Positions 2,407 through 48,570 of a DNA stretch of 48,768 nucleotides are shown here, in pieces; position 1 is the first letter of the stretch, and each line of letters starts with the position of its first letter. The stretch covers positions 1-48,768 of the forward strand of contig LFCO01000003.1 in assembly GCA_001189165.1 (NCBI GenBank), in the 5' to 3' direction. Source of the stretch: Parcubacteria bacterium C7867-005. Its GTDB lineage: Bacteria > Patescibacteriota > Minisyncoccia > Phycocordibacterales > Zambryskibacteraceae. Under the pieces are notes generated by a model, which saw only the letters and a list, made by a program, of their open reading frames with translations, was not told where the DNA came from and ran no database searches. A program made the translations under genes and the position numbers.

Positions 2407-3178
2407 TTTTTTCTTTTAACGGAACGAGAACAAAGGCGTAGTTTTCATCATTTTCAGATCTGAAAATAGGAGTGATAACACCTGAGCTTATATCTTCATC
2501 CAGATAAACATTAACCTCGTCAGAAAAAGATTTTTTGATTCTAGAGACGAGACCCGCATGATCACTCTCATCCTTCTCCACAACAAGACCAACCGTTTCT
2601 ACCTCACTCTTCTCTGTACTGTTTGCACCAATAACAGCTGCAACAAAACTCTTCTCAGAACTCTGCTCAGTACCAAATCCGATCGCCCTAGACAAACCAG
2701 AGGCAACATTTATAAAACTTTCTGACATATGTGGCAAAGTATAGTCAGCCCAGGAGACAACCATAATTGTCGAGAGTAGTGTCGCGGATACTCTGGCAGC
2801 TATTGCTCTAGTAATATTGACTCCTACTCTGGATTCTTTGCGCTTCAAAAGCTCGGGTAGCCGTGGTGCACTGTCCTTTTCATAAACGATTGTTGAATTG
2901 TTTATGGCATTAACAGTAGATTCATTGATCAAATTTTTTTCAGCATCTAACCTCGATTTACTCTTTTGATTTCTTAAGTTTTTATTTTTTCTACTTTTAG
3001 ATTTCGAGTGGAGAGTGATTGCATCTAGCTCTACATACCACGACCTACCGATCATTTTGCCCGGCAGCTGACCATTCCTAACGAGTGATCCAACGTAGTC
3101 CTGGGAATATCCAAAACTTTCAGCAGCTCGCCCAGCCGATATGTATCTCTTGTTGTCGAGAAAAAGATCTTTGTTCAT
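2399..3178 (-). CDS. HTH-domain protein with a central hydrophobic segment (possible membrane-anchored regulator)
   Basis: ORF track, 259 aa. N-terminus ISAGRAAESFGYSQDYVGSLVRNGQLPG...SWYV looks like an excisionase/MerR-type HTH. A basic linker follows, then the hydrophobic stretch ATLLSTIMVVSWA. Overlaps the surface-protein gene, consistent with one operon. Confidence 0.6.
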   Translation of the reverse strand: MNKDLFLDNKRYISAGRAAESFGYSQDYVGSLVRNGQLPGKMIGRSWYVELDAITLHSKSKSRKNKNLRNQKSKSRLDAEKNLINESTVNAINNSTIVYEKDSAPRLPELLKRKESRVGVNITRAIAARVSATLLSTIMVVSWADYTLPHMSESFINVASGLSRAIGFGTEQSSEKSFVAAVIGANSTEKSEVETVGLVVEKDESDHAGLVSRIKKSFSDEVNVYLDEDISSGVITPIFRSENDENYAFVLVPLKEKND

Positions 3179-16925: not shown

Positions 16926-17888
16926 ATGACCACGATCATGCAGCGAATCGACCGCACCGCGACGATTCCGATCTCTCACAGGGTGCCAACGCCCCCACCC
17001 CCGCAGTCCGTGAAGATCGAGGTTACTGGAGTGTGTAACCTCAGATGTGGTTTCTGCGCTCTTACCAAGCGCGATACCCAGCCCACGAAACCCATGTCCT
17101 GGGAGTTCCTGGAGAGGATGATCAGGGAGTGTAGGGAGTTCGGAATCAAGGAGATCGGATTCTTCTACATCGGCGAATCCTTCACTGCCATGGACATTCT
17201 TGTCCCCGGAATCAGGCTCGCCACCGAGCTAGGTTTTGAGGGCAGGTTCCTCACCTCGAATGCCACGGTAGCTACCCCAGACAGGGTCCGGCAAGTCATC
17301 GAAGCTGGGTTGACCTCATTGAAGTGGAGCGTCAACAACGATTCTCCGCATCAGTTCGCGGAAGTGACCGCGAGACCCGAGAGACTGTTCCATCTGGCCA
17401 TGGCCAACATCCGGCGGGCCAAGGAGGTCAGGGATGACGTCTTCGGTCGGACCGGCCATCGATGCGAGCTTTCGGCATCAAGGATCCGATACAACGATGA
17501 CCAGCATCTGAGGATGATCGAGTTCTTCAGAACTGAGGTCGAGCCATTCGTCGACCATGCCTACGAACTACCCCCGTACACGATGGGTGGATCCCCTATC
17601 GAGAGGGAGAGGGAGCTCGGAATCAATCCGACCGCAGGGAACCAGGGTCGGATCGGCGGTCTGGTGGCACCAATACCATGCTGGGCGGTTTTCACTGAGG
17701 CGCACATCACCTCATGTGGGATGCTCAGCGCATGTTGTTTCGATGCCAACGGTTCATGGACCATGGCAGACCTGAACGAGGTGTCGCTCGCAGATGGATG
17801 GCATAGCATCGCCTTCCAGAACCTGCGCAACGCACACCTCGAAGGTAACATCCGGGGTACCGCATGCGAGACGTGTGCTCTGTACTGA
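16926..17888 (+). CDS. Radical SAM enzyme with Cys-rich SPASM/twitch-like C-terminal domain
   Basis: ORF track, 320 aa. Has the CxxxCxxC cluster VTGVCNLRCGFCAL and the C-terminal cysteines CWAV...SCGMLSACCF...GTACETC. GGAG lies 7 nt upstream of the ATG. Codons are GC3-rich, unlike the neighbouring genes. Confidence 0.85.
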   Translation: MTTIMQRIDRTATIPISHRVPTPPPPQSVKIEVTGVCNLRCGFCALTKRDTQPTKPMSWEFLERMIRECREFGIKEIGFFYIGESFTAMDILVPGIRLATELGFEGRFLTSNATVATPDRVRQVIEAGLTSLKWSVNNDSPHQFAEVTARPERLFHLAMANIRRAKEVRDDVFGRTGHRCELSASRIRYNDDQHLRMIEFFRTEVEPFVDHAYELPPYTMGGSPIERERELGINPTAGNQGRIGGLVAPIPCWAVFTEAHITSCGMLSACCFDANGSWTMADLNEVSLADGWHSIAFQNLRNAHLEGNIRGTACETCALY

Positions 17889-38536: not shown

Positions 38537-39595
38537 ATGAAATCAAACATGAATCTAGAGAAAATAGCCTCAATCATTGCTCCACTGGGCTTTGAATTAG
38601 ACGAAGAACAACCTCACATGAAGGGCGAGCGATTCCTCATGATGAAAAACAAATATGTGCTCTCGGCCACTACAGATAAAGGTAATAAGGTGATCTTAAA
38701 AATTGCTCACCACGAAGATGGTAAGAAAGAAATAATGGATGAAAAACTCAATAGAGATGTGCTGACATCTGTAGTTTTTTCAAATGACCGCTTGATGGTG
38801 CCAGAAGAAATTTATTTCGGTATTAAGGATGGGCATCTTGTCTGGGCCACAGCCTTCATCCCTCAAGAAAAAGTGTTTGTCGCCCATTCAATTGAAGATC
38901 AATTTTTCAAGATATTGAGGGTTTTTGAAGAACAAGAAGCATTCCATGCCACAACCTTTGAACACCTCAAGTCTATCAGCAAAGTCTTTCCTGTATTTCA
39001 TGCCAAAGAATACTTCGAGGAGTTTAAGAAATTTGCAAACTCTGTATCTAAAAACATTAAGGATAGAAACTTGGATGACTTGATGTCCGATGCCTATGAA
39101 CTGTTGGTTTCAAATAAAAAAAATATAGATGAGTTCTCAAACTATTTGACCCATACTGATTTTGTCCCTCATAATTTTCGCATTAGAGGTAATGCGATAT
39201 TCATGCTCGACTTATCCTCTGTCCATTTTGGGAACAAATACGAAGGATGGGCCAGATTTATGAATTATATGGTCATACATAACCCACACTTAAACAAACT
39301 CTTGTCTGAATATGTGTTGAAAAATAGAGGGGTGAAAGAGCAACTTTCTCTGCGTTTAATGCGTATATATAAAATAGGTTTTCTGCTTCAATTTTATGGA
39401 GCCTCTCTGTCCAAAACCGAAGGCGATCTGCAAAAACTTACTATGGAGAGGATTAGCTTCTGGCAAACAATACTTGAACACCTGGTAAATAATGAGGAGG
39501 TGCCTGAATCTTTTGTAGAATCATACAAAGATATCAGGGATAATCTACGCTCCAAGGATGAGAAGGATCGCCAAAAAGAATTTGCTATCGCTTAA
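38537..39595 (+). CDS. Aminoglycoside/choline-kinase-like phosphotransferase family protein
   Basis: ORF track, 352 aa. LTHTDFVPHNFRI (HxDxxxxN catalytic loop), followed by FMLDLSS. Confidence 0.65.
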   Translation: MKSNMNLEKIASIIAPLGFELDEEQPHMKGERFLMMKNKYVLSATTDKGNKVILKIAHHEDGKKEIMDEKLNRDVLTSVVFSNDRLMVPEEIYFGIKDGHLVWATAFIPQEKVFVAHSIEDQFFKILRVFEEQEAFHATTFEHLKSISKVFPVFHAKEYFEEFKKFANSVSKNIKDRNLDDLMSDAYELLVSNKKNIDEFSNYLTHTDFVPHNFRIRGNAIFMLDLSSVHFGNKYEGWARFMNYMVIHNPHLNKLLSEYVLKNRGVKEQLSLRLMRIYKIGFLLQFYGASLSKTEGDLQKLTMERISFWQTILEHLVNNEEVPESFVESYKDIRDNLRSKDEKDRQKEFAIA

Positions 39596-40188
39596 GTTAA
39601 AATCTCAGAGACAACGGAGCTTATTTCAGGACTCTCATCGATTGAACTTTCTGCATTATTATGATCAACATATGCAGTAGCAGCAATTTCGCCTACATAA
39701 TCACGATCGACAATGTCACCATCCTGAGCGCTTTGATATTCAGCAATCTCTAAATATTTATTAAAAATTGCTTCAGCATGCTCTGCTAAAATTGGCTGAC
39801 CATCCACAATACCCCTAAATGCAAACACAACATCACTCATGTGGTCATCATTAATATTGTGCTTAATTATTCGTATTTCGTGACCGTCAATTGAACCCTG
39901 AATTAAATCGCCAAAGATAGTGTCCCCACCATTACCTTGTCCGAATCTTAATTTACAGTTTTTTGGATTTAATTCATTTCTTCTATTTTCAGGATCATAA
40001 TATTTTTCTCTAAGATATGACATTAACATCATCCCTCGTTCTTTGTCAGTTGGGATTTGATCATGATCATTTTTTTGCAAGCCCATCATCTCTTTTGCTT
40101 TACCTGTCTCCATCTTTTCGTGGAACCATGATTCGAATGACATAATTTCAGAATTAATCAGTTTAATAAATCTGTCTAAATAATACAC
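39592..40188 (-). CDS. Hypothetical protein
   Basis: ORF track, 198 aa from a GTG. An internal ATG at 40143 (MSFESWFHEK...) is an alternative start. No motif recognised. Confidence 0.5.
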   Translation of the reverse strand: MYYLDRFIKLINSEIMSFESWFHEKMETGKAKEMMGLQKNDHDQIPTDKERGMMLMSYLREKYYDPENRRNELNPKNCKLRFGQGNGGDTIFGDLIQGSIDGHEIRIIKHNINDDHMSDVVFAFRGIVDGQPILAEHAEAIFNKYLEIAEYQSAQDGDIVDRDYVGEIAATAYVDHNNAESSIDESPEISSVVSEILT

Positions 40189-40213: not shown

Positions 40214-40996
40214 CTATATCAAGATGGGTTTAAGGGCATTTAGGATTTCCTCTGAGTTGACTGCAATTATCTGCTGCTTTTCCTTAGACAGACCACTTAT
40301 TGGTACACCCCCCTTGCCCAAGATCAGCCCTCCAGCCTCGTACAAGAGCCCCACAGCCGCGGCGATGTCTATGGTGGTAAGGGTGCCGTAAATATTGGCC
40401 TCTACCCTGCCTGAAGCCACATAACACATATCAAGCCCCGAGCTCCCCAGATTGGCGCACTTAACCCCATTTTGGAGGAGGAATTTGTATGAGTCTGCTC
40501 CCCAATTCCAAAGATCTTTATTTCTACCCGCACGGAGTAGCATGTAGGACTCACCAAGACTTTTAATGTTTGATATCTTTATTGGTCGACCGTTCAGAAA
40601 AGATCCCTTGCCCTTTTGAAAACTGTAGAGTTCATCAGTGGCTGGATTATAAAGTGCACCAACTACAGGAACTCCTTTCTCAACATAAGCAACTACAACA
40701 GCGTAGTGTGGAATGTGTCGAGAGAAATTGCTCGTACCATCTATCGGGTCAAGAGACCAAAATGATCCTGAAGAAATATCTTCATCAGTAGCCTCTTCTG
40801 AATATATCGCTTCGCCCGCGAATCCCTCTCGTATTCTAGTACTCAAAAATTCACTAATCTCCAAGTCAGCTTTGGTGACGATGTCTAATGGATTACCATC
40901 CTTAAAAGATTTCTCAATATCTGTATGAACATACTCTTGGAGTTTCCATCCAGCTTCCTTGACTAATCCTAATATGAAGTCGTATCTATTTTTCAT
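40214..40996 (-). CDS. Inositol monophosphatase/SuhB/CysQ-family phosphatase
   Basis: The track ORF starts at TTG 41014. ATG 40996 (MKNRYDFILG) is preferred on promoter spacing. Has WSLDPIDGTSNF and GSSGLDMCYVASG motifs. Confidence 0.85.
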   Translation of the reverse strand: MKNRYDFILGLVKEAGWKLQEYVHTDIEKSFKDGNPLDIVTKADLEISEFLSTRIREGFAGEAIYSEEATDEDISSGSFWSLDPIDGTSNFSRHIPHYAVVVAYVEKGVPVVGALYNPATDELYSFQKGKGSFLNGRPIKISNIKSLGESYMLLRAGRNKDLWNWGADSYKFLLQNGVKCANLGSSGLDMCYVASGRVEANIYGTLTTIDIAAAVGLLYEAGGLILGKGGVPISGLSKEKQQIIAVNSEEILNALKPILI

Positions 40997-41002
40997 AAAA
41001 TC

Positions 41003-41011
41003 AATATAGCA
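41003..41011 (-). promoter_or_regulatory. Extended -10 TGcTATATT, 6 nt upstream of ATG 40996 (leaderless-type)
   Basis: Minus strand reads TGCTATATT-gatttt-ATG. Overlaps the left copy of the 9-bp direct repeat. Confidence 0.55.
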
Positions 41012-41013
41012 CA
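41005..41013. repeat. Left copy of the 9-bp direct repeat TATAGCACA flanking cassette 2
   Basis: An exact 9-mer also occurs at 41777-41785. Confidence 0.55.
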
Positions 41014-41021
41014 AACAAATT

Positions 41022-41047
41022 GGGCCCAGTACCGAAGTACTGGGCCC
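41022..41047 (-). terminator. Perfect 11-bp GC-rich hairpin downstream of the cassette-2 gene
   Basis: GGGCCCAGTAC-cgaa-GTACTGGGCCC, starting 27 nt after the stop and followed on the minus strand by aatttgtttg. Confidence 0.65.
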
Positions 41048-41074
41048 TTACTACAATCTCACAGCTTCACTTGA

Positions 41075-41707
41075 TCACCAGAAGATGTTGTCGGCGATCT
41101 CTGTCCCGCCGCTCGTGATACCCTTCTTCGAGCCACCTTCCGTCGTAGCAACCTCCTCCTCCGTCAAGAGGTGCAAGGTCGCATGAAGGCTCATCTTGAA
41201 GAGAACGAGTTGTGGTGCCTCGATGTCGAAGAAGTGGAAGAGACGCCTGGTGGACATGCCTTCCTTCTCGCGGGCCGAGGTACCTCCGCCCGCCTTCTGC
41301 TCGAGTGTCTTCACGAAGCGGAACGTGATCCCGCTCGCTTCCTCGGCGGTGAGGATGGGGCCGAAGCTGAGGATCTTCTCCCGCACGAACTCCTCCATGA
41401 TCTCCCGCGCCGGATCGATCTCGAAGAAGTCTGGATCACGCCGAGAGAAGATCTCGAAGATCGTCTCGAGGTGCGAGTCGTCGACGACGAACCGAGCATC
41501 CATCCCTTCGAAGTCATGCGCCTCGAAATTGTTCTCGAGGTACTCCTTGCCCAACTGCGTGAGCTCGGCTGCGCCACCGAGAGCTCCGATCCTCTTGTGT
41601 CCCTTACGGAATGAAGCCGAGTTGAGGACACCGAAGAACCGAACTGCGCCAGTCTCCTTGACGATGAGACGAGGGGCAAGGTTGCCGATCGAGATGCGAA
41701 TGAGCAC
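41075..41707 (-). CDS. Orphan 210-aa protein of unknown function, high-GC codon usage
   Basis: ORF track, GTG start with GGAGGG 3 nt upstream. GC3-rich codons (ctc, atc, ttc, gag). It is the only frame with a sensible composition; the overlapping ORFs on both strands look like GC-content artefacts. Confidence 0.7.
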   Translation of the reverse strand: MLIRISIGNLAPRLIVKETGAVRFFGVLNSASFRKGHKRIGALGGAAELTQLGKEYLENNFEAHDFEGMDARFVVDDSHLETIFEIFSRRDPDFFEIDPAREIMEEFVREKILSFGPILTAEEASGITFRFVKTLEQKAGGGTSAREKEGMSTRRLFHFFDIEAPQLVLFKMSLHATLHLLTEEEVATTEGGSKKGITSGGTEIADNIFW

Positions 41708-41774
41708 GTACCCTCCGAGAGGTGGTCTGGAAGACCTTGTAAGTGGTTACTGTGATGTTCAACTGCCTAATCCC

Positions 41775-41783
41775 ATTATAGCA
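41775..41783 (-). promoter_or_regulatory. Extended -10 TGcTATAAT at the upstream junction of cassette 2
   Basis: Minus strand reads cattgTGTGCTATAATggg. It overlaps the right copy of the 9-bp repeat and would give a leader of roughly 60 nt to GTG 41707. Confidence 0.55.
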
Positions 41784-41785
41784 CA
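41777..41785. repeat. Right copy of the 9-bp direct repeat TATAGCACA
   Basis: An exact match to 41005-41013. Confidence 0.55.
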
Positions 41786-41807
41786 CAATGTATATGAAAG
41801 TCAATGG

Positions 41808-42962
41808 CTACAAAAGACCATCAAATACAAGGGTTTTGAGGTAGCGGGCGACGAGGTCCCATTCGTACTTTTCTCTTACTAACCTCCGACCATTTTCTAT
41901 AAGGGAATCCCTGAGCTCTTTATTCTTTATTAATCTTTTTACCTGAATAACAATACTTTCTGGATTCTCTGTTTTAACGAAAAGCCCGGTTGGTTTTTTA
42001 TCTTTATTTTTATCAGGATCGAAAACAAAATCGACGATACCACCAACTGGGGTAGCTATAACCGGCAAGCCCGCTGCCATAGCTTCGATGAACGAATTAC
42101 CAAACCCCTCAGAAAGAGACGGGCGGATAAATATGTCTGATGCATGCAAATATAGAGGCACATCTTCATAAGACATGTGGCCCAAAAACATCACACGAGC
42201 TTCAAGATTTAAATTTTTAGTTAACAGTTTTAGACTATTCTCTAGTGGACCAGTACCGATGATTAACAATTTTATATTCCCGGGCAGATCAACCAAAGAT
42301 TGGATGATGTCCTTCACCCCATTCTTCTTGACCAACCTCGAGGTGGTGATCAGATATATATCTCCCTCTTTTTTATCCATACGTTCTAGCAAGCTCTGGA
42401 GCCTCGATGGATCAGATATCCGAGAGAAAACAGCAGTCTCTACCCCATTAGGAATCACCTCTACCCTGCCCTTATAACCCATTGATACAGCAAAGTTTGC
42501 GAGGAATAAAGAAATAGTCTGTATAACATCAGCCTTCAAAAATATCCTCCTGAAAAGTGGGTACACGAACCTCGCCTTTGATTTAATTTCTTCTAAAGGA
42601 ATCCCCTCCTGAAGAGTAAGCACGTAAGGAACTTTAGGGAAAGAGTATTTGAAGAACAAGCTGGCAAATCCCGCATGCGCTGCCATGATGGACCAAATCA
42701 TGTTGTAAGATTTTTCCAGGTGCAGCTTTTTACCAAAGAGATACGCTTTGATAGGAAACAGTATCTTGGGGGTATCAATCCTGTAGACGGTTACATTGTT
42801 TATCTTTTCTACATCTTTGTGCTCCTTAGAGAACTTTTTTGTCACCATATCAAACTCTATATCAGTCATGCGACTGGTCAGTTCCCTGACTGCAACCTCT
42901 GCTCCGCCAACAATAGGTTCGTATGCGAGTGAAAATATGAGTACTCGTTTCATTTTATTCAT
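41808..42962 (-). CDS. GT4-family glycosyltransferase
   Basis: ORF track, 384 aa. PSLSEGFGNSFIEAMAAGLPVI. Confidence 0.8.
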   Translation of the reverse strand: MNKMKRVLIFSLAYEPIVGGAEVAVRELTSRMTDIEFDMVTKKFSKEHKDVEKINNVTVYRIDTPKILFPIKAYLFGKKLHLEKSYNMIWSIMAAHAGFASLFFKYSFPKVPYVLTLQEGIPLEEIKSKARFVYPLFRRIFLKADVIQTISLFLANFAVSMGYKGRVEVIPNGVETAVFSRISDPSRLQSLLERMDKKEGDIYLITTSRLVKKNGVKDIIQSLVDLPGNIKLLIIGTGPLENSLKLLTKNLNLEARVMFLGHMSYEDVPLYLHASDIFIRPSLSEGFGNSFIEAMAAGLPVIATPVGGIVDFVFDPDKNKDKKPTGLFVKTENPESIVIQVKRLIKNKELRDSLIENGRRLVREKYEWDLVARYLKTLVFDGLL

Positions 42963-44734: not shown

Positions 44735-45034
44735 ATGCTACACACAGAAAGAAGGCCCGGCCACAACGAGTGGCTTGGCCTGAAGGGGGCACTCCAGAGC
44801 TGTGGTGCCACTGTCGAACTCGAGATGTTAAAGATCATCGAACTCGACGGGCATATCTCCACCTGTCGTCATCCGCACATCCGGCGGGAGCATGTCCTGA
44901 ATGCCAACCGGTTGTTCGAGGAACTCCATCACGGTTGGCGTATCCTGGATGAGCGTGGCCAACCGTGGCCGACTGAGGAAGATGAGCTCTACATCTTTCC
45001 CACGAATCACCCGCGGACATCCACGACCGCCTGA
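44735..45034 (+). CDS. Orphan 99-aa protein of unknown function, high-GC codon usage
   Basis: ORF track. Preceded by an SD-like GAGAGGA and followed at once by a hairpin terminator. The antisense ORFs in the same segment look like GC artefacts. Confidence 0.55.
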   Translation: MLHTERRPGHNEWLGLKGALQSCGATVELEMLKIIELDGHISTCRHPHIRREHVLNANRLFEELHHGWRILDERGQPWPTEEDELYIFPTNHPRTSTTA

Positions 45035-46530: not shown

Positions 46531-46618
46531 CCACATCCCTCTCCTCCGCGTCTCCCCCTGTGTCAACCTGGCAGGTTGACACAGGGAGATCAAACGGGGC
46601 GGGAGGGGGTTCAGGGTG
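46531..46618 (-). other. Short GC-rich structured element with a perfect 13-bp hairpin (core 46556-46586), immediately 3' of tRNA-Ile
   Basis: CCCTGTGTCAACC-tggca-GGTTGACACAGGG, flanked by C-rich and G-rich arms that can extend the pairing imperfectly. No U-tract follows on either strand. Confidence 0.5.
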
Positions 46619-46691
46619 TGCGCGTGCCAGGGGTCGAACCTGGGACCTACCGAGTATCAGTCGATTGCTCTACCAGCTGAGCTACACGCGC
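46619..46691 (-). tRNA. tRNA-Ile (anticodon GAU), CCA not encoded
   Basis: Manual cloverleaf, 73 nt: acceptor GCGCGUG/CACGCGC, D arm GCUC-AGCUGGUA-GAGC, anticodon arm AUCGA-CUGAUAC-UCGGU, variable AGGUC, T arm CCAGG-UUCGACC-CCUGG, discriminator A. Confidence 0.9.

Positions 46692-47052: not shown

Positions 47053-48570
<1,518 letters not shown>

Follow-up and report, generated by a model that had tools for sequence, protein, structure and literature searches.

A small variable slot between two conserved promoters in a glycan locus of Parcubacteria bacterium C7867-005, probably held by a replaceable Nudix-like gene

The stretch of DNA analysed here, called the window, comprises 48,768 nucleotides (nt) of contig LFCO01000003.1 from Parcubacteria bacterium C7867-005 (assembly GCA_001189165.1, positions 1 to 48,768 of the forward strand). 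On its minus strand, a glycosyltransferase (GT) gene and a gene of the inositol-monophosphatase (IMPase) family are separated by a segment (41014–41776) rich in guanine plus cytosine (GC), which holds a single gene, here named X, and the same 9-mer, TATAGCACA, is found at both edges of this segment. The original prediction, made from the letters of this DNA, took the 9-mer for the target duplication left by the insertion of a foreign gene. Comparison with related genomes points to another reading: X is probably the current occupant of a slot, that is, a self-contained transcription unit between two conserved promoters whose occupants are replaced among relatives, and the 9-mer would represent the overlap of the consensus cores of the two promoters (TRTG-n-TATA), not an insertion scar.

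Gene X runs from a GTG start codon at 41707 to a TGA stop at 41075, and its homologues start at the same codon position, as ATG. Its GC content is 0.59, with 0.79 at third codon positions (GC3), against 0.35–0.44 and 0.27–0.44, respectively, in the neighbouring genes. A Shine–Dalgarno sequence, GGAGGG (41711–41716), is separated from the GTG by three nucleotides (tac), and the leaders of orthologs each carry a purine-rich Shine–Dalgarno-like run ahead of the start codon. Aligning X leaders from 10 loci revealed no conserved RNA element (mean column identity of 35%). The hairpin past the stop codon has 8 GC pairs among its 11 and a tail, AATTTGTTTG, with a folding z of −3.5, and thus combines a GC-rich hairpin with a U-tract; its efficiency as a terminator is uncertain because this U-tract is interrupted. 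A hairpin is present at the same position after X in every ortholog. The 210-amino-acid (aa) GC-rich open reading frame (ORF), the GGAGGG with its GTG start and the perfect 11-bp hairpin had all been recognized correctly in the original prediction. The label of orphan gene was wrong: a word-indexed search found 8 close homologues at 42–68% identity, and a full HMMER scan with their alignment returned 330 cluster representatives of the family at E ≤ 1e-3, 99 of them at E ≤ 1e-30. An Rfam scan of the window at gathering thresholds gave the 16S rRNA and tRNA-Ile only, with no match in the X region. Two ORFs of 147 and 228 aa, antisense to X, were rejected as genes, being fragmentary, not conserved in orthologs and a usual by-product of GC-rich DNA.

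Table 1. Features of the slot and of its two flanking genes, with the evidence on which each assignment is based.
Feature	Position	Strand	Basis
GT4 glycosyltransferase, conserved left flank of the slot	41808..42962	(-)	Pfam, synteny
Slot promoter, -35 box TTGACT	41799..41804	(-)	3 nt past glycosyltransferase stop; promoter scan
Slot promoter, extended -10 tgTGcTATAAT, holds upstream 9-mer copy (41777-41785)	41775..41785	(-)	Promoter scan, sequence
Predicted 5' leader of X, about 60 nt	41708..41768	(-)	Transcription start inferred about 7 nt past the -10
Gene X, divergent Nudix-fold (Sa_NUDIX-like), 210 aa	41075..41707	(-)	ORF calling, homologue alignment, structure model
Terminator-like hairpin, perfect 11-bp stem, TTCG (UUCG) loop, then AAUUUGUUUG	41022..41047	(-)	Terminator scan, folding
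IMPase leaderless promoter, extended -10 tgTGcTATATT, holds downstream 9-mer copy (41005-41013)	41003..41013	(-)	Sequence, orthologs
Inositol-monophosphatase (IMPase) family gene	40214..40996	(-)	Pfam PF00459, E = 2e-49

The slot promoter, TTGACT-18-TGcTATAAT, agrees with the consensus at 11 of 12 positions. The same architecture, TTGAC(T/A), about 18 nt and TATAAT, is found in most orthologous loci before X or before an unrelated gene family, Y, with −10 boxes that read TGaTATAAT (L001, L019), TGcTATAAT (L018, L085) or TGtTATAGT (L009); L-numbers designate orthologous loci from related genomes, and W is the locus of the window. The promoter sequence is ctattgacttttgggtataaggtgtgatataat in L001, where X follows, and ctattgacttttgtgtataaagtgtgatataat in L019, where Y follows. 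The upstream 9-mer copy, proposed as an extended −10 aimed into the cassette, is a credible promoter for X and is conserved in orthologs.

The IMPase gene starts at the ATG at 40996, not at the TTG at 41014, its orthologs beginning with MQNRF or MKNRY at this ATG. Its promoter has no −35 box and reads TGcTATATT-gatttt-ATG (41011–40994), with aatttgtt in front of the longer form TGTGcTATATT (41013–41003). The arrangement TGnTATATT-N6-ATG precedes IMPase in W, L001, L002, L012, L013, L014, L017, L018 and L019, and L007 has TGcTATAGT at the same spacing. Most of the 25 orthologous loci that were read keep this promoter, and it is retained with X, Y or other genes upstream, several of these loci being devoid of X, so that the conservation of the promoter is independent of the slot content. 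The leaderless signature that had been noticed, with the −10 box lying 6 nt ahead of the ATG, is borne out.

Leaderless 'group C' promoters place the Pribnow box 6–8 nt before the start of first operon genes (Lomsadze et al. 2018, PMC6028130). The IMPase gene conforms to this pattern in full, with a −10 box ending within this range, no Shine–Dalgarno site and TG at −15/−14, and the window peaks at the same distance: TANNNT ends 6, 7, 8 and 9 nt before the start in 10, 4, 3 and 3 of its 39 genes, respectively, with about one gene at each of the other spacings. Overall, about 20 of the 39 genes have a −10-like box 6–9 nt before the start, with the sharp peak at 6, and about 8 have a Shine–Dalgarno-like motif, including all three GC-rich genes of the window (X, a radical-SAM gene at 16926 and orf99 at 44735). 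The window differs from the published group in that the assignment is sequence-based and in that many boxes use TGn, and some TRTGn, without a −35. TGn precedes the −10 at 8 promoter-like sites of the window; of these, 4 carry TGTGn (15320, 25568 and the two studied here) and 1 carries TATGn. Leaderless promoters seem to predominate in this genome, frequently with an extended −10, and the window provides useful sequence-level evidence for this organization; a literature search returned nothing usable on leaderless transcription or differential RNA sequencing in Saccharibacteria.

The order of the locus is conserved: a TraG-like ATPase, the GT4 glycosyltransferase, the variable slot, the IMPase gene, a convergent 352-aa gene (h352) and an epimerase. 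A metagenome scan with the IMPase alignment identified 21 orthologous loci, and a scan of a genome collection with the IMPase protein gave one true relative only, an 'uncultured Candidatus Saccharibacteria' metagenome-assembled genome (MAG). X and the IMPase gene occur together in about 12 Saccharibacteria-type loci, with X directly after the GT wherever that flank is covered. X stands immediately before IMPase in W, L001, a JGI contig, L005, L009, L017, L020 and L028, and extra genes lie between the two in L002, L007, L018 and L085. Identity with the X of the window is 68% in L001, where a LigT-like gene precedes the promoter, 55% in the JGI contig and 46–49% in L002, where two reverse-strand genes follow X. 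The contigs of L005 and L009 cover the IMPase side of X only, an EamA gene is located after X in L007 and before it in L017, L028 holds a distant and partial X, and L085 has two more genes before IMPase. From this distribution, X can be regarded as a long-standing resident of the locus.

The slot contains X, the unrelated Y, an epimerase together with a 167-aa gene (L013), or nothing. Family Y comprises proteins of 240–330 aa in L012, L014, L015 (also L016 and L032), L019, L021, L024 and L025 (for example, L012:2413–3276 and L019:2439–3425), with no Pfam or NCBIfam match, a GT-A-like motif (NTxAxWD...GGFD...EEI) and a GC content above that of its locus. The possibility that X and Y are distant homologues was rejected, since Y aligns with the GT-A-like motif and the two profiles match disjoint sets of ORFs. 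Two slots are empty: in L027 the stop of the GT gene overlaps with the start of IMPase, and L029 has a 25-nt spacer, with TATAGA-N6-ATG.

The edges of the exchanged piece can be located by comparing L001, which holds X, with L019, which holds Y, the flanks of the two loci being about 80% identical in DNA. Homology extends through ctattgactttt...gtgtgatataatatg, ends 3 nt past the −10 and resumes in a T-tract about 30 nt before the IMPase ATG. Because it stops past the slot −10 and resumes before the IMPase −10, the replaced piece is exactly one transcription unit. The segment between the two −10 boxes is a true unit of variation, and the DNA that the original prediction had singled out as a unit does behave as replaceable among related genomes.

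Divergence along the locus is discordant. In L001, L017, L018 and L019, IMPase and h352 are 82–92% identical, and X is 46–61% identical or replaced by Y. At four-fold sites, L001 and L017 agree at the random level in X (0.29 observed, 0.29 expected) and above it in IMPase (0.47 versus 0.27), which indicates that these X alleles split before their flanks; homology between the two loci persists in the promoter, over the opening few dozen bases of the coding sequence and in the terminator. The IMPase protein of the window is 91–98% identical to that of L002 (L002:6071–6810), at 79% DNA identity, and 46% identical to that of L001, while the epimerase of the window is 80% identical to that of L001 and 55% identical to that of L002. 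The IMPase pattern with respect to L002 suggests deep allelic lineages or the exchange of a single gene.

Genes near the IMPase of the window are 44–78% identical to those of L002, a Saccharibacteria MAG, in which a frameshift or an assembly error breaks the IMPase gene into two ORFs. L024 has a 74-nt exact direct repeat (L024:1525–1662) immediately upstream of its slot promoter, with an offset of 64 nt, so that the copies overlap in tandem. L007 carries a perfect 22-nt direct repeat, TTTGTGCTATAGTGGCCGCATG, at 2258–2279 and 3155–3176, which brackets the EamA transporter gene (ATG at 2277 to stop at 3140), an insertion after the X terminator and ahead of the IMPase gene. An extended −10, 6 nt and the ATG make up this repeat, and the Pfam match to EamA starts at residue 2 of the ORF opened by the repeated ATG; L008, a sister contig of L007, ends inside the first copy. 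With this composition, the L007 repeat is a genuine duplication of a whole leaderless promoter and shows that promoters do become duplicated in this locus.

Protein X could be placed in a superfamily tentatively, through its predicted structure and its relatives. Structure prediction, one of the checks first proposed for the 210-aa protein, gave Nudix-fold matches, although weak ones. An AlphaFold2 model built on a nine-sequence alignment reached a predicted local distance difference test (pLDDT) score of 91.9 and a predicted template modelling (pTM) score of 0.87; in Foldseek searches, its top 50 PDB matches were all Nudix proteins, including the E. coli GDP-mannose hydrolase (yffH structures), and its top 50 viral matches were mostly Nudix. 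Helix 100–108 bears R101-E102-I-M-E105-E106, with R101, E102 and E106 invariant in the nine sequences, and this REIxEE would correspond to the REUxEE catalytic core of Nudix enzymes. Relative to the complete Nudix box (GX5EX7REUXEEXGU), the upstream spacing is shortened, with E96-x4-R101 instead of E-x7-R, and the leading G is ambiguous. Four relatives of X (P0023, P0044, P0116 and P0012) score 25–39.8 bits against PF18167 (Sa_NUDIX), which links the family as a whole to this domain, though the protein of the window alone fails to pass. X thus resembles the Sa_NUDIX/Nudix superfamily in its predicted fold, its conserved helix and these relatives, and departs from it in its score, in the E-x4-R spacing, in the weakness of its structural matches and in lacking a SMODS or CBASS (cyclic-oligonucleotide-based antiphage signalling system) partner.

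Other searches added little. In PADLOC, X matched the Nudix portion of CBASS 2TM effectors and a reverse-transcriptase (RT)-associated NUDIX, both marginally, a PDB sequence search with the X profile gave no meaningful match, NCBIfam has no family for X, Y, orf99 or h198 (a gene described below), tblastn of X against plasmid and phage collections gave no match, and the 10 distant relatives of X retrieved by cluster look-up are annotated only as 'hypothetical protein'. A literature search for 'SMODS-associated NUDIX' likewise returned nothing usable. X is probably an active Nudix-type pyrophosphohydrolase. Its substrate would be nucleotide-linked, a nucleotide-sugar being likeliest because X is fixed among glycosyltransferases, epimerases and a sugar-phosphatase-type gene; a role in conflict or nucleotide signalling, with a signalling nucleotide as substrate, is the main alternative. 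Gmm/WcaH are Nudix GDP-mannose hydrolases of the E. coli colanic-acid cluster, to whose function that of X would be analogous, and X likewise sits within a glycan gene cluster. Some longer proteins, of 406–708 aa (P0023, P0024 and P0044), carry the X domain behind N-terminal regions of 200–330 aa without Pfam match; the 708-aa fusion (L086:5001–7127) lies on a contig of GC 0.56 and adjoins a GT87 gene and two-component genes.

The composition of X is as distinctive as its position. Its GC3 ranges from 0.57 to 0.79 across hosts, against 0.31–0.59 in the adjacent IMPase gene, and it is GC-richer than its surroundings in every host except L085, where its GC equals that of the host. Between X alleles, synonymous sites are near saturation (0.29–0.47 observed versus 0.28–0.32 expected). 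Y and the other GC-rich genes of the window share this profile of high GC, a leader and a Shine–Dalgarno site.

The radical-SAM/SPASM gene (16926–17888, plus strand; GC 0.58, GC3 0.71) has, like X, its own promoter, a leader, a Shine–Dalgarno site (GGAGAA) and a hairpin terminator; it is followed by the leaderless promoter TGaTAATAT-N6-ATG of a GT8 gene, and the 8-mer TATTATCT is found in both of its flanks. orf99 (44735–45034, plus strand), of 99 aa and GC 0.58, has a Shine–Dalgarno site and a GC hairpin past its stop and lies between the TraG-like and DUF4015 genes, which run in the other direction. Searches of Pfam, NCBIfam and PADLOC gave no match for it, and the orthologous loci carry different small genes at its position.

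The explanation that we consider probable, that of a slot with successive occupants, would work as follows. The segment 41014–41776 would be transcribed as one unit from the conserved sigma-70 promoter just after the GT stop, and the IMPase gene would be driven by its own leaderless extended −10 without a −35, a normal arrangement in this genome. The slot unit would be replaced among relatives by divergent X alleles, GC-rich Y, extra genes or nothing, most likely through homologous recombination within the flanks, which are conserved, in the manner of surface-polysaccharide loci. The pattern of replacement is consistent with a recombining surface-glycan locus. The slot with its occupants (Nudix-like or GT-A-like) is useful as a small, sharply bounded variable site in a conserved glycan locus, and these unannotated, fast-evolving genes could plausibly govern the surface or host interaction of an epibiont.

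O-antigen and capsule loci exchange gene content by homologous recombination in conserved flanks. The locus studied here shares with them conserved flanks, a variable centre (X, Y, EamA, LigT-like and extra epimerase genes), deep allelic lineages and gene-by-gene mosaic identity; it differs from them in that the slot unit is as small as one transcription unit, ends at two −10 boxes and has occupants that are consistently GC-richer than the host. Integron cassettes are a second point of comparison, with a fixed upstream promoter and interchangeable single-gene units that each end in a hairpin. However, the slot hairpins are plain terminators of 9–11 bp rather than attC sites (that of X being no more than an 11-bp stem and a 4-nt loop), and there is one unit per locus. 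No transposase or integrase Pfam match was found among the genes that flank the slot in the orthologous loci (GT, IMPase, TraG-like, epimerase and unmatched genes), and the Pfam search within the window covered the GT gene, the IMPase gene and two genes without match.

Several observations weigh against this explanation. TGTGnTATA is otherwise rare, with 14 occurrences in 414 kb (both strands), and 13 of the 14 are at slot or IMPase promoter types; the two promoters are therefore more alike than random promoters of this genome, and a common ancestry by old duplication keeps a residual likelihood. Moreover, A occupies only 0.04–0.12 of the four-fold sites of X, against 0.25–0.38 in its neighbours, and the persistently high GC3 is not explained by simple vertical residence. 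As GC3 persists despite near-saturated synonymous sites, the composition of X looks maintained, or else repeatedly re-imported from Saccharibacteria of about 0.54 GC (L007, L011 and L085). With respect to the protein, the structural matches of X are weak (E = 0.007–0.3, template modelling score of 0.3–0.4), and its score against PF18167 is 21.6 bits, under the Pfam gathering cut-off of 25.

An alternative that we regard as unlikely, though deserving attention, is that X belongs to a defence or counter-defence module, as a stand-alone Sa_NUDIX sensor or signalling-nucleotide hydrolase whose fast arms-race evolution would explain the allelic diversity. The only family matches of X are indeed to Sa_NUDIX (PF18167) and, in PADLOC, to RT-associated NUDIX and the models of CBASS 2TM effectors, with E = 5e-8 for the relative P0007 and 0.006 for the protein of the window, and the flanking GT also matches a 'GT4-conflict' model. 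Furthermore, at a comparable synonymous distance X changes more quickly than the adjacent genes, with 62% identity for X and 90% for IMPase in the pair L017 and L018. However, no cyclase, SMODS or reverse-transcriptase partner is found nearby in any locus, the neighbours are always glycosyltransferases, epimerases and the sugar-phosphatase-type gene, and the PADLOC scores of the window protein are insignificant.

Rather unlikely, in our estimation, is the stronger proposal that Saccharibacteria maintain a slot dedicated to expression, bounded by a fixed promoter to the left and a leaderless one to the right, with GC-rich, Shine–Dalgarno-led single-gene cassettes swapped between them. New genes of this neighbourhood could also be wired in by copying the leaderless promoter and ATG of a neighbour, as in L007, the similarity of the two −10 boxes would be a trace of this process, and the composition of the cassettes would be actively maintained, for example by biased gene conversion or codon selection.

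The recent horizontal acquisition of X from a GC-rich donor, such as an actinobacterial host of the epibiont, would make the segment a fresh island in which X is not native; it is distinctly improbable. It would account for the GC3 of 0.79 in X against about 0.42 in the flanks, for the leader and Shine–Dalgarno site of X, present likewise in its two GC-rich counterparts in the window, within a genome that is mostly leaderless, and for the location of the 708-aa fused relative on its GC-rich contig. Nevertheless, the nearest relative of X is just 68% identical and lies at the same site in another Saccharibacteria-type genome, with a synonymous divergence that equals that of the flanks (0.40 observed and 0.28 expected for X; 0.37 and 0.27 for TraG). 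X is found in the locus across hosts of GC 0.34–0.54, including L085 with its matching composition, and has no plasmid or phage match. The compositional anomaly persists across hosts and cannot be the simple fading relic of one transfer. An import of X alleles from higher-GC Saccharibacteria is possible and fits the slot explanation.

The reading with which the analysis started, insertion with target duplication, depends on the 9-mer itself. It occurs exactly twice in the window, at 41005–41013 and 41777–41785, and the match extends to 11 of 12 bases; both junction copies had been predicted, one nucleotide away from these coordinates. On the minus strand, as also described then, the upstream copy falls within TGcTATAAT and the downstream one within TGcTATATT, 6 nt before the ATG at 40996. 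Two or more copies were obtained in 4 of 100 whole-window shuffles, and the window contains 967 exact 9-mer pairs 50–2500 nt apart, versus about 600 in shuffles. When two 100-nt flanks were compared for each gene, exact matches of at least 9 nt were found at 6 of the 39 window genes, including two 10-mers, so that the repeat does not go beyond chance.

The bases of the 9-mer are also those expected from promoter function, as 8 of the 9 fall on consensus positions of TRTGnTATAAT, an extended −10 that includes a −16 element, and the ninth is free. TRTG is familiar as the −16 element of Gram-positive promoters. The free base differs between the two promoters of L001 (TGTGaTATA at the slot, TGTGtTATA at IMPase), those of L017 read TGTGaTATA and TaTGtTATA, and in L002 and L007 the two promoters at X share nothing beyond TATA. 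An exact 9-mer repeat at X is seen in the window only, the orthologs matching at 8 of 9 positions or fewer. TGTGCTATA is present in six copies in about 207 kb of related loci (two in W, two in L007 and one each in L024 and L085), and all six are −10 boxes of slot or IMPase/EamA promoters.

The insertion of a foreign gene at the transcription start of a leaderless IMPase gene, with a 9-bp target duplication that split one promoter into two working −10 boxes, both kept by selection, is therefore assigned a very low probability. The identity of the −10 cores at both cassette boundaries agrees with it, as does the occurrence of TGTGnTATA in the same two promoter types in several lineages; the downstream copy has no −35 and depends on TGn, as would be expected had an insertion removed its upstream half, and L007 offers a real case of promoter duplication, around its EamA gene. 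The model predicts a single-copy empty site, GT-TTGACT-18-TGTGCTATATT-gatttt-ATG(IMPase), for which comparison with related genomes had been suggested, but the empty sites of L027 and L029 do not contain this fused promoter. Nor does the upstream −10 appear to have been created at an insertion junction, since the same promoter, with its −35, stands near-identical in L019 ahead of the unrelated Y. Any insertion would be ancient, because X is present in about 12 loci with proteins merely 38–68% identical, and over a divergence down to 38% protein identity an unselected 9-mer would not survive.

A transposon with target-site duplication and a hybrid promoter would resemble the segment in the short direct repeat that flanks a compositionally distinct piece and in the −10 completed at the junction. 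In contrast, the gene for the Nudix-like protein is the only ORF in 41014–41776, with no transposase, and no terminal inverted repeats were found at the ends of this segment; the repeat is not kept in orthologs, and the promoter pre-exists before other genes. From the original prediction, the swappable unit between two −10 boxes and the leaderless downstream gene stand, while an origin by 9-bp target duplication is left unsupported, as the 9-mer consists of a consensus core, flank matches arise by chance and the repeat is absent from orthologs. Had the insertion occurred, it would have represented a new way for incoming genes to gain promoters; the evidence favours the more ordinary case of two conserved promoters with a common consensus core.

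Next to the IMPase gene, between it and the convergent 352-aa gene, lies h198 (39592–40188, minus strand), an AT-rich gene of 198 aa with a GC3 of 0.27, the Shine–Dalgarno sequence GGGAGGGG and a GTG start. By tblastn, it had no match in 23 orthologous loci, in which IMPase and the 352-aa gene abut where gene calls are given, and it has no family match. A 10-mer, GATAATCTAC, flanks h198; it was considered as a meaningful repeat and set aside as a chance match, fortuitous because one of its copies falls within the following gene, about 50 nt in, and it illustrates the false-positive rate of flank repeats. Finally, a tRNA-Ile(GAT) gene (46618–46691) and a complete 16S rRNA gene (47053–48570, minus strand) account for the GC-rich right end of the window.

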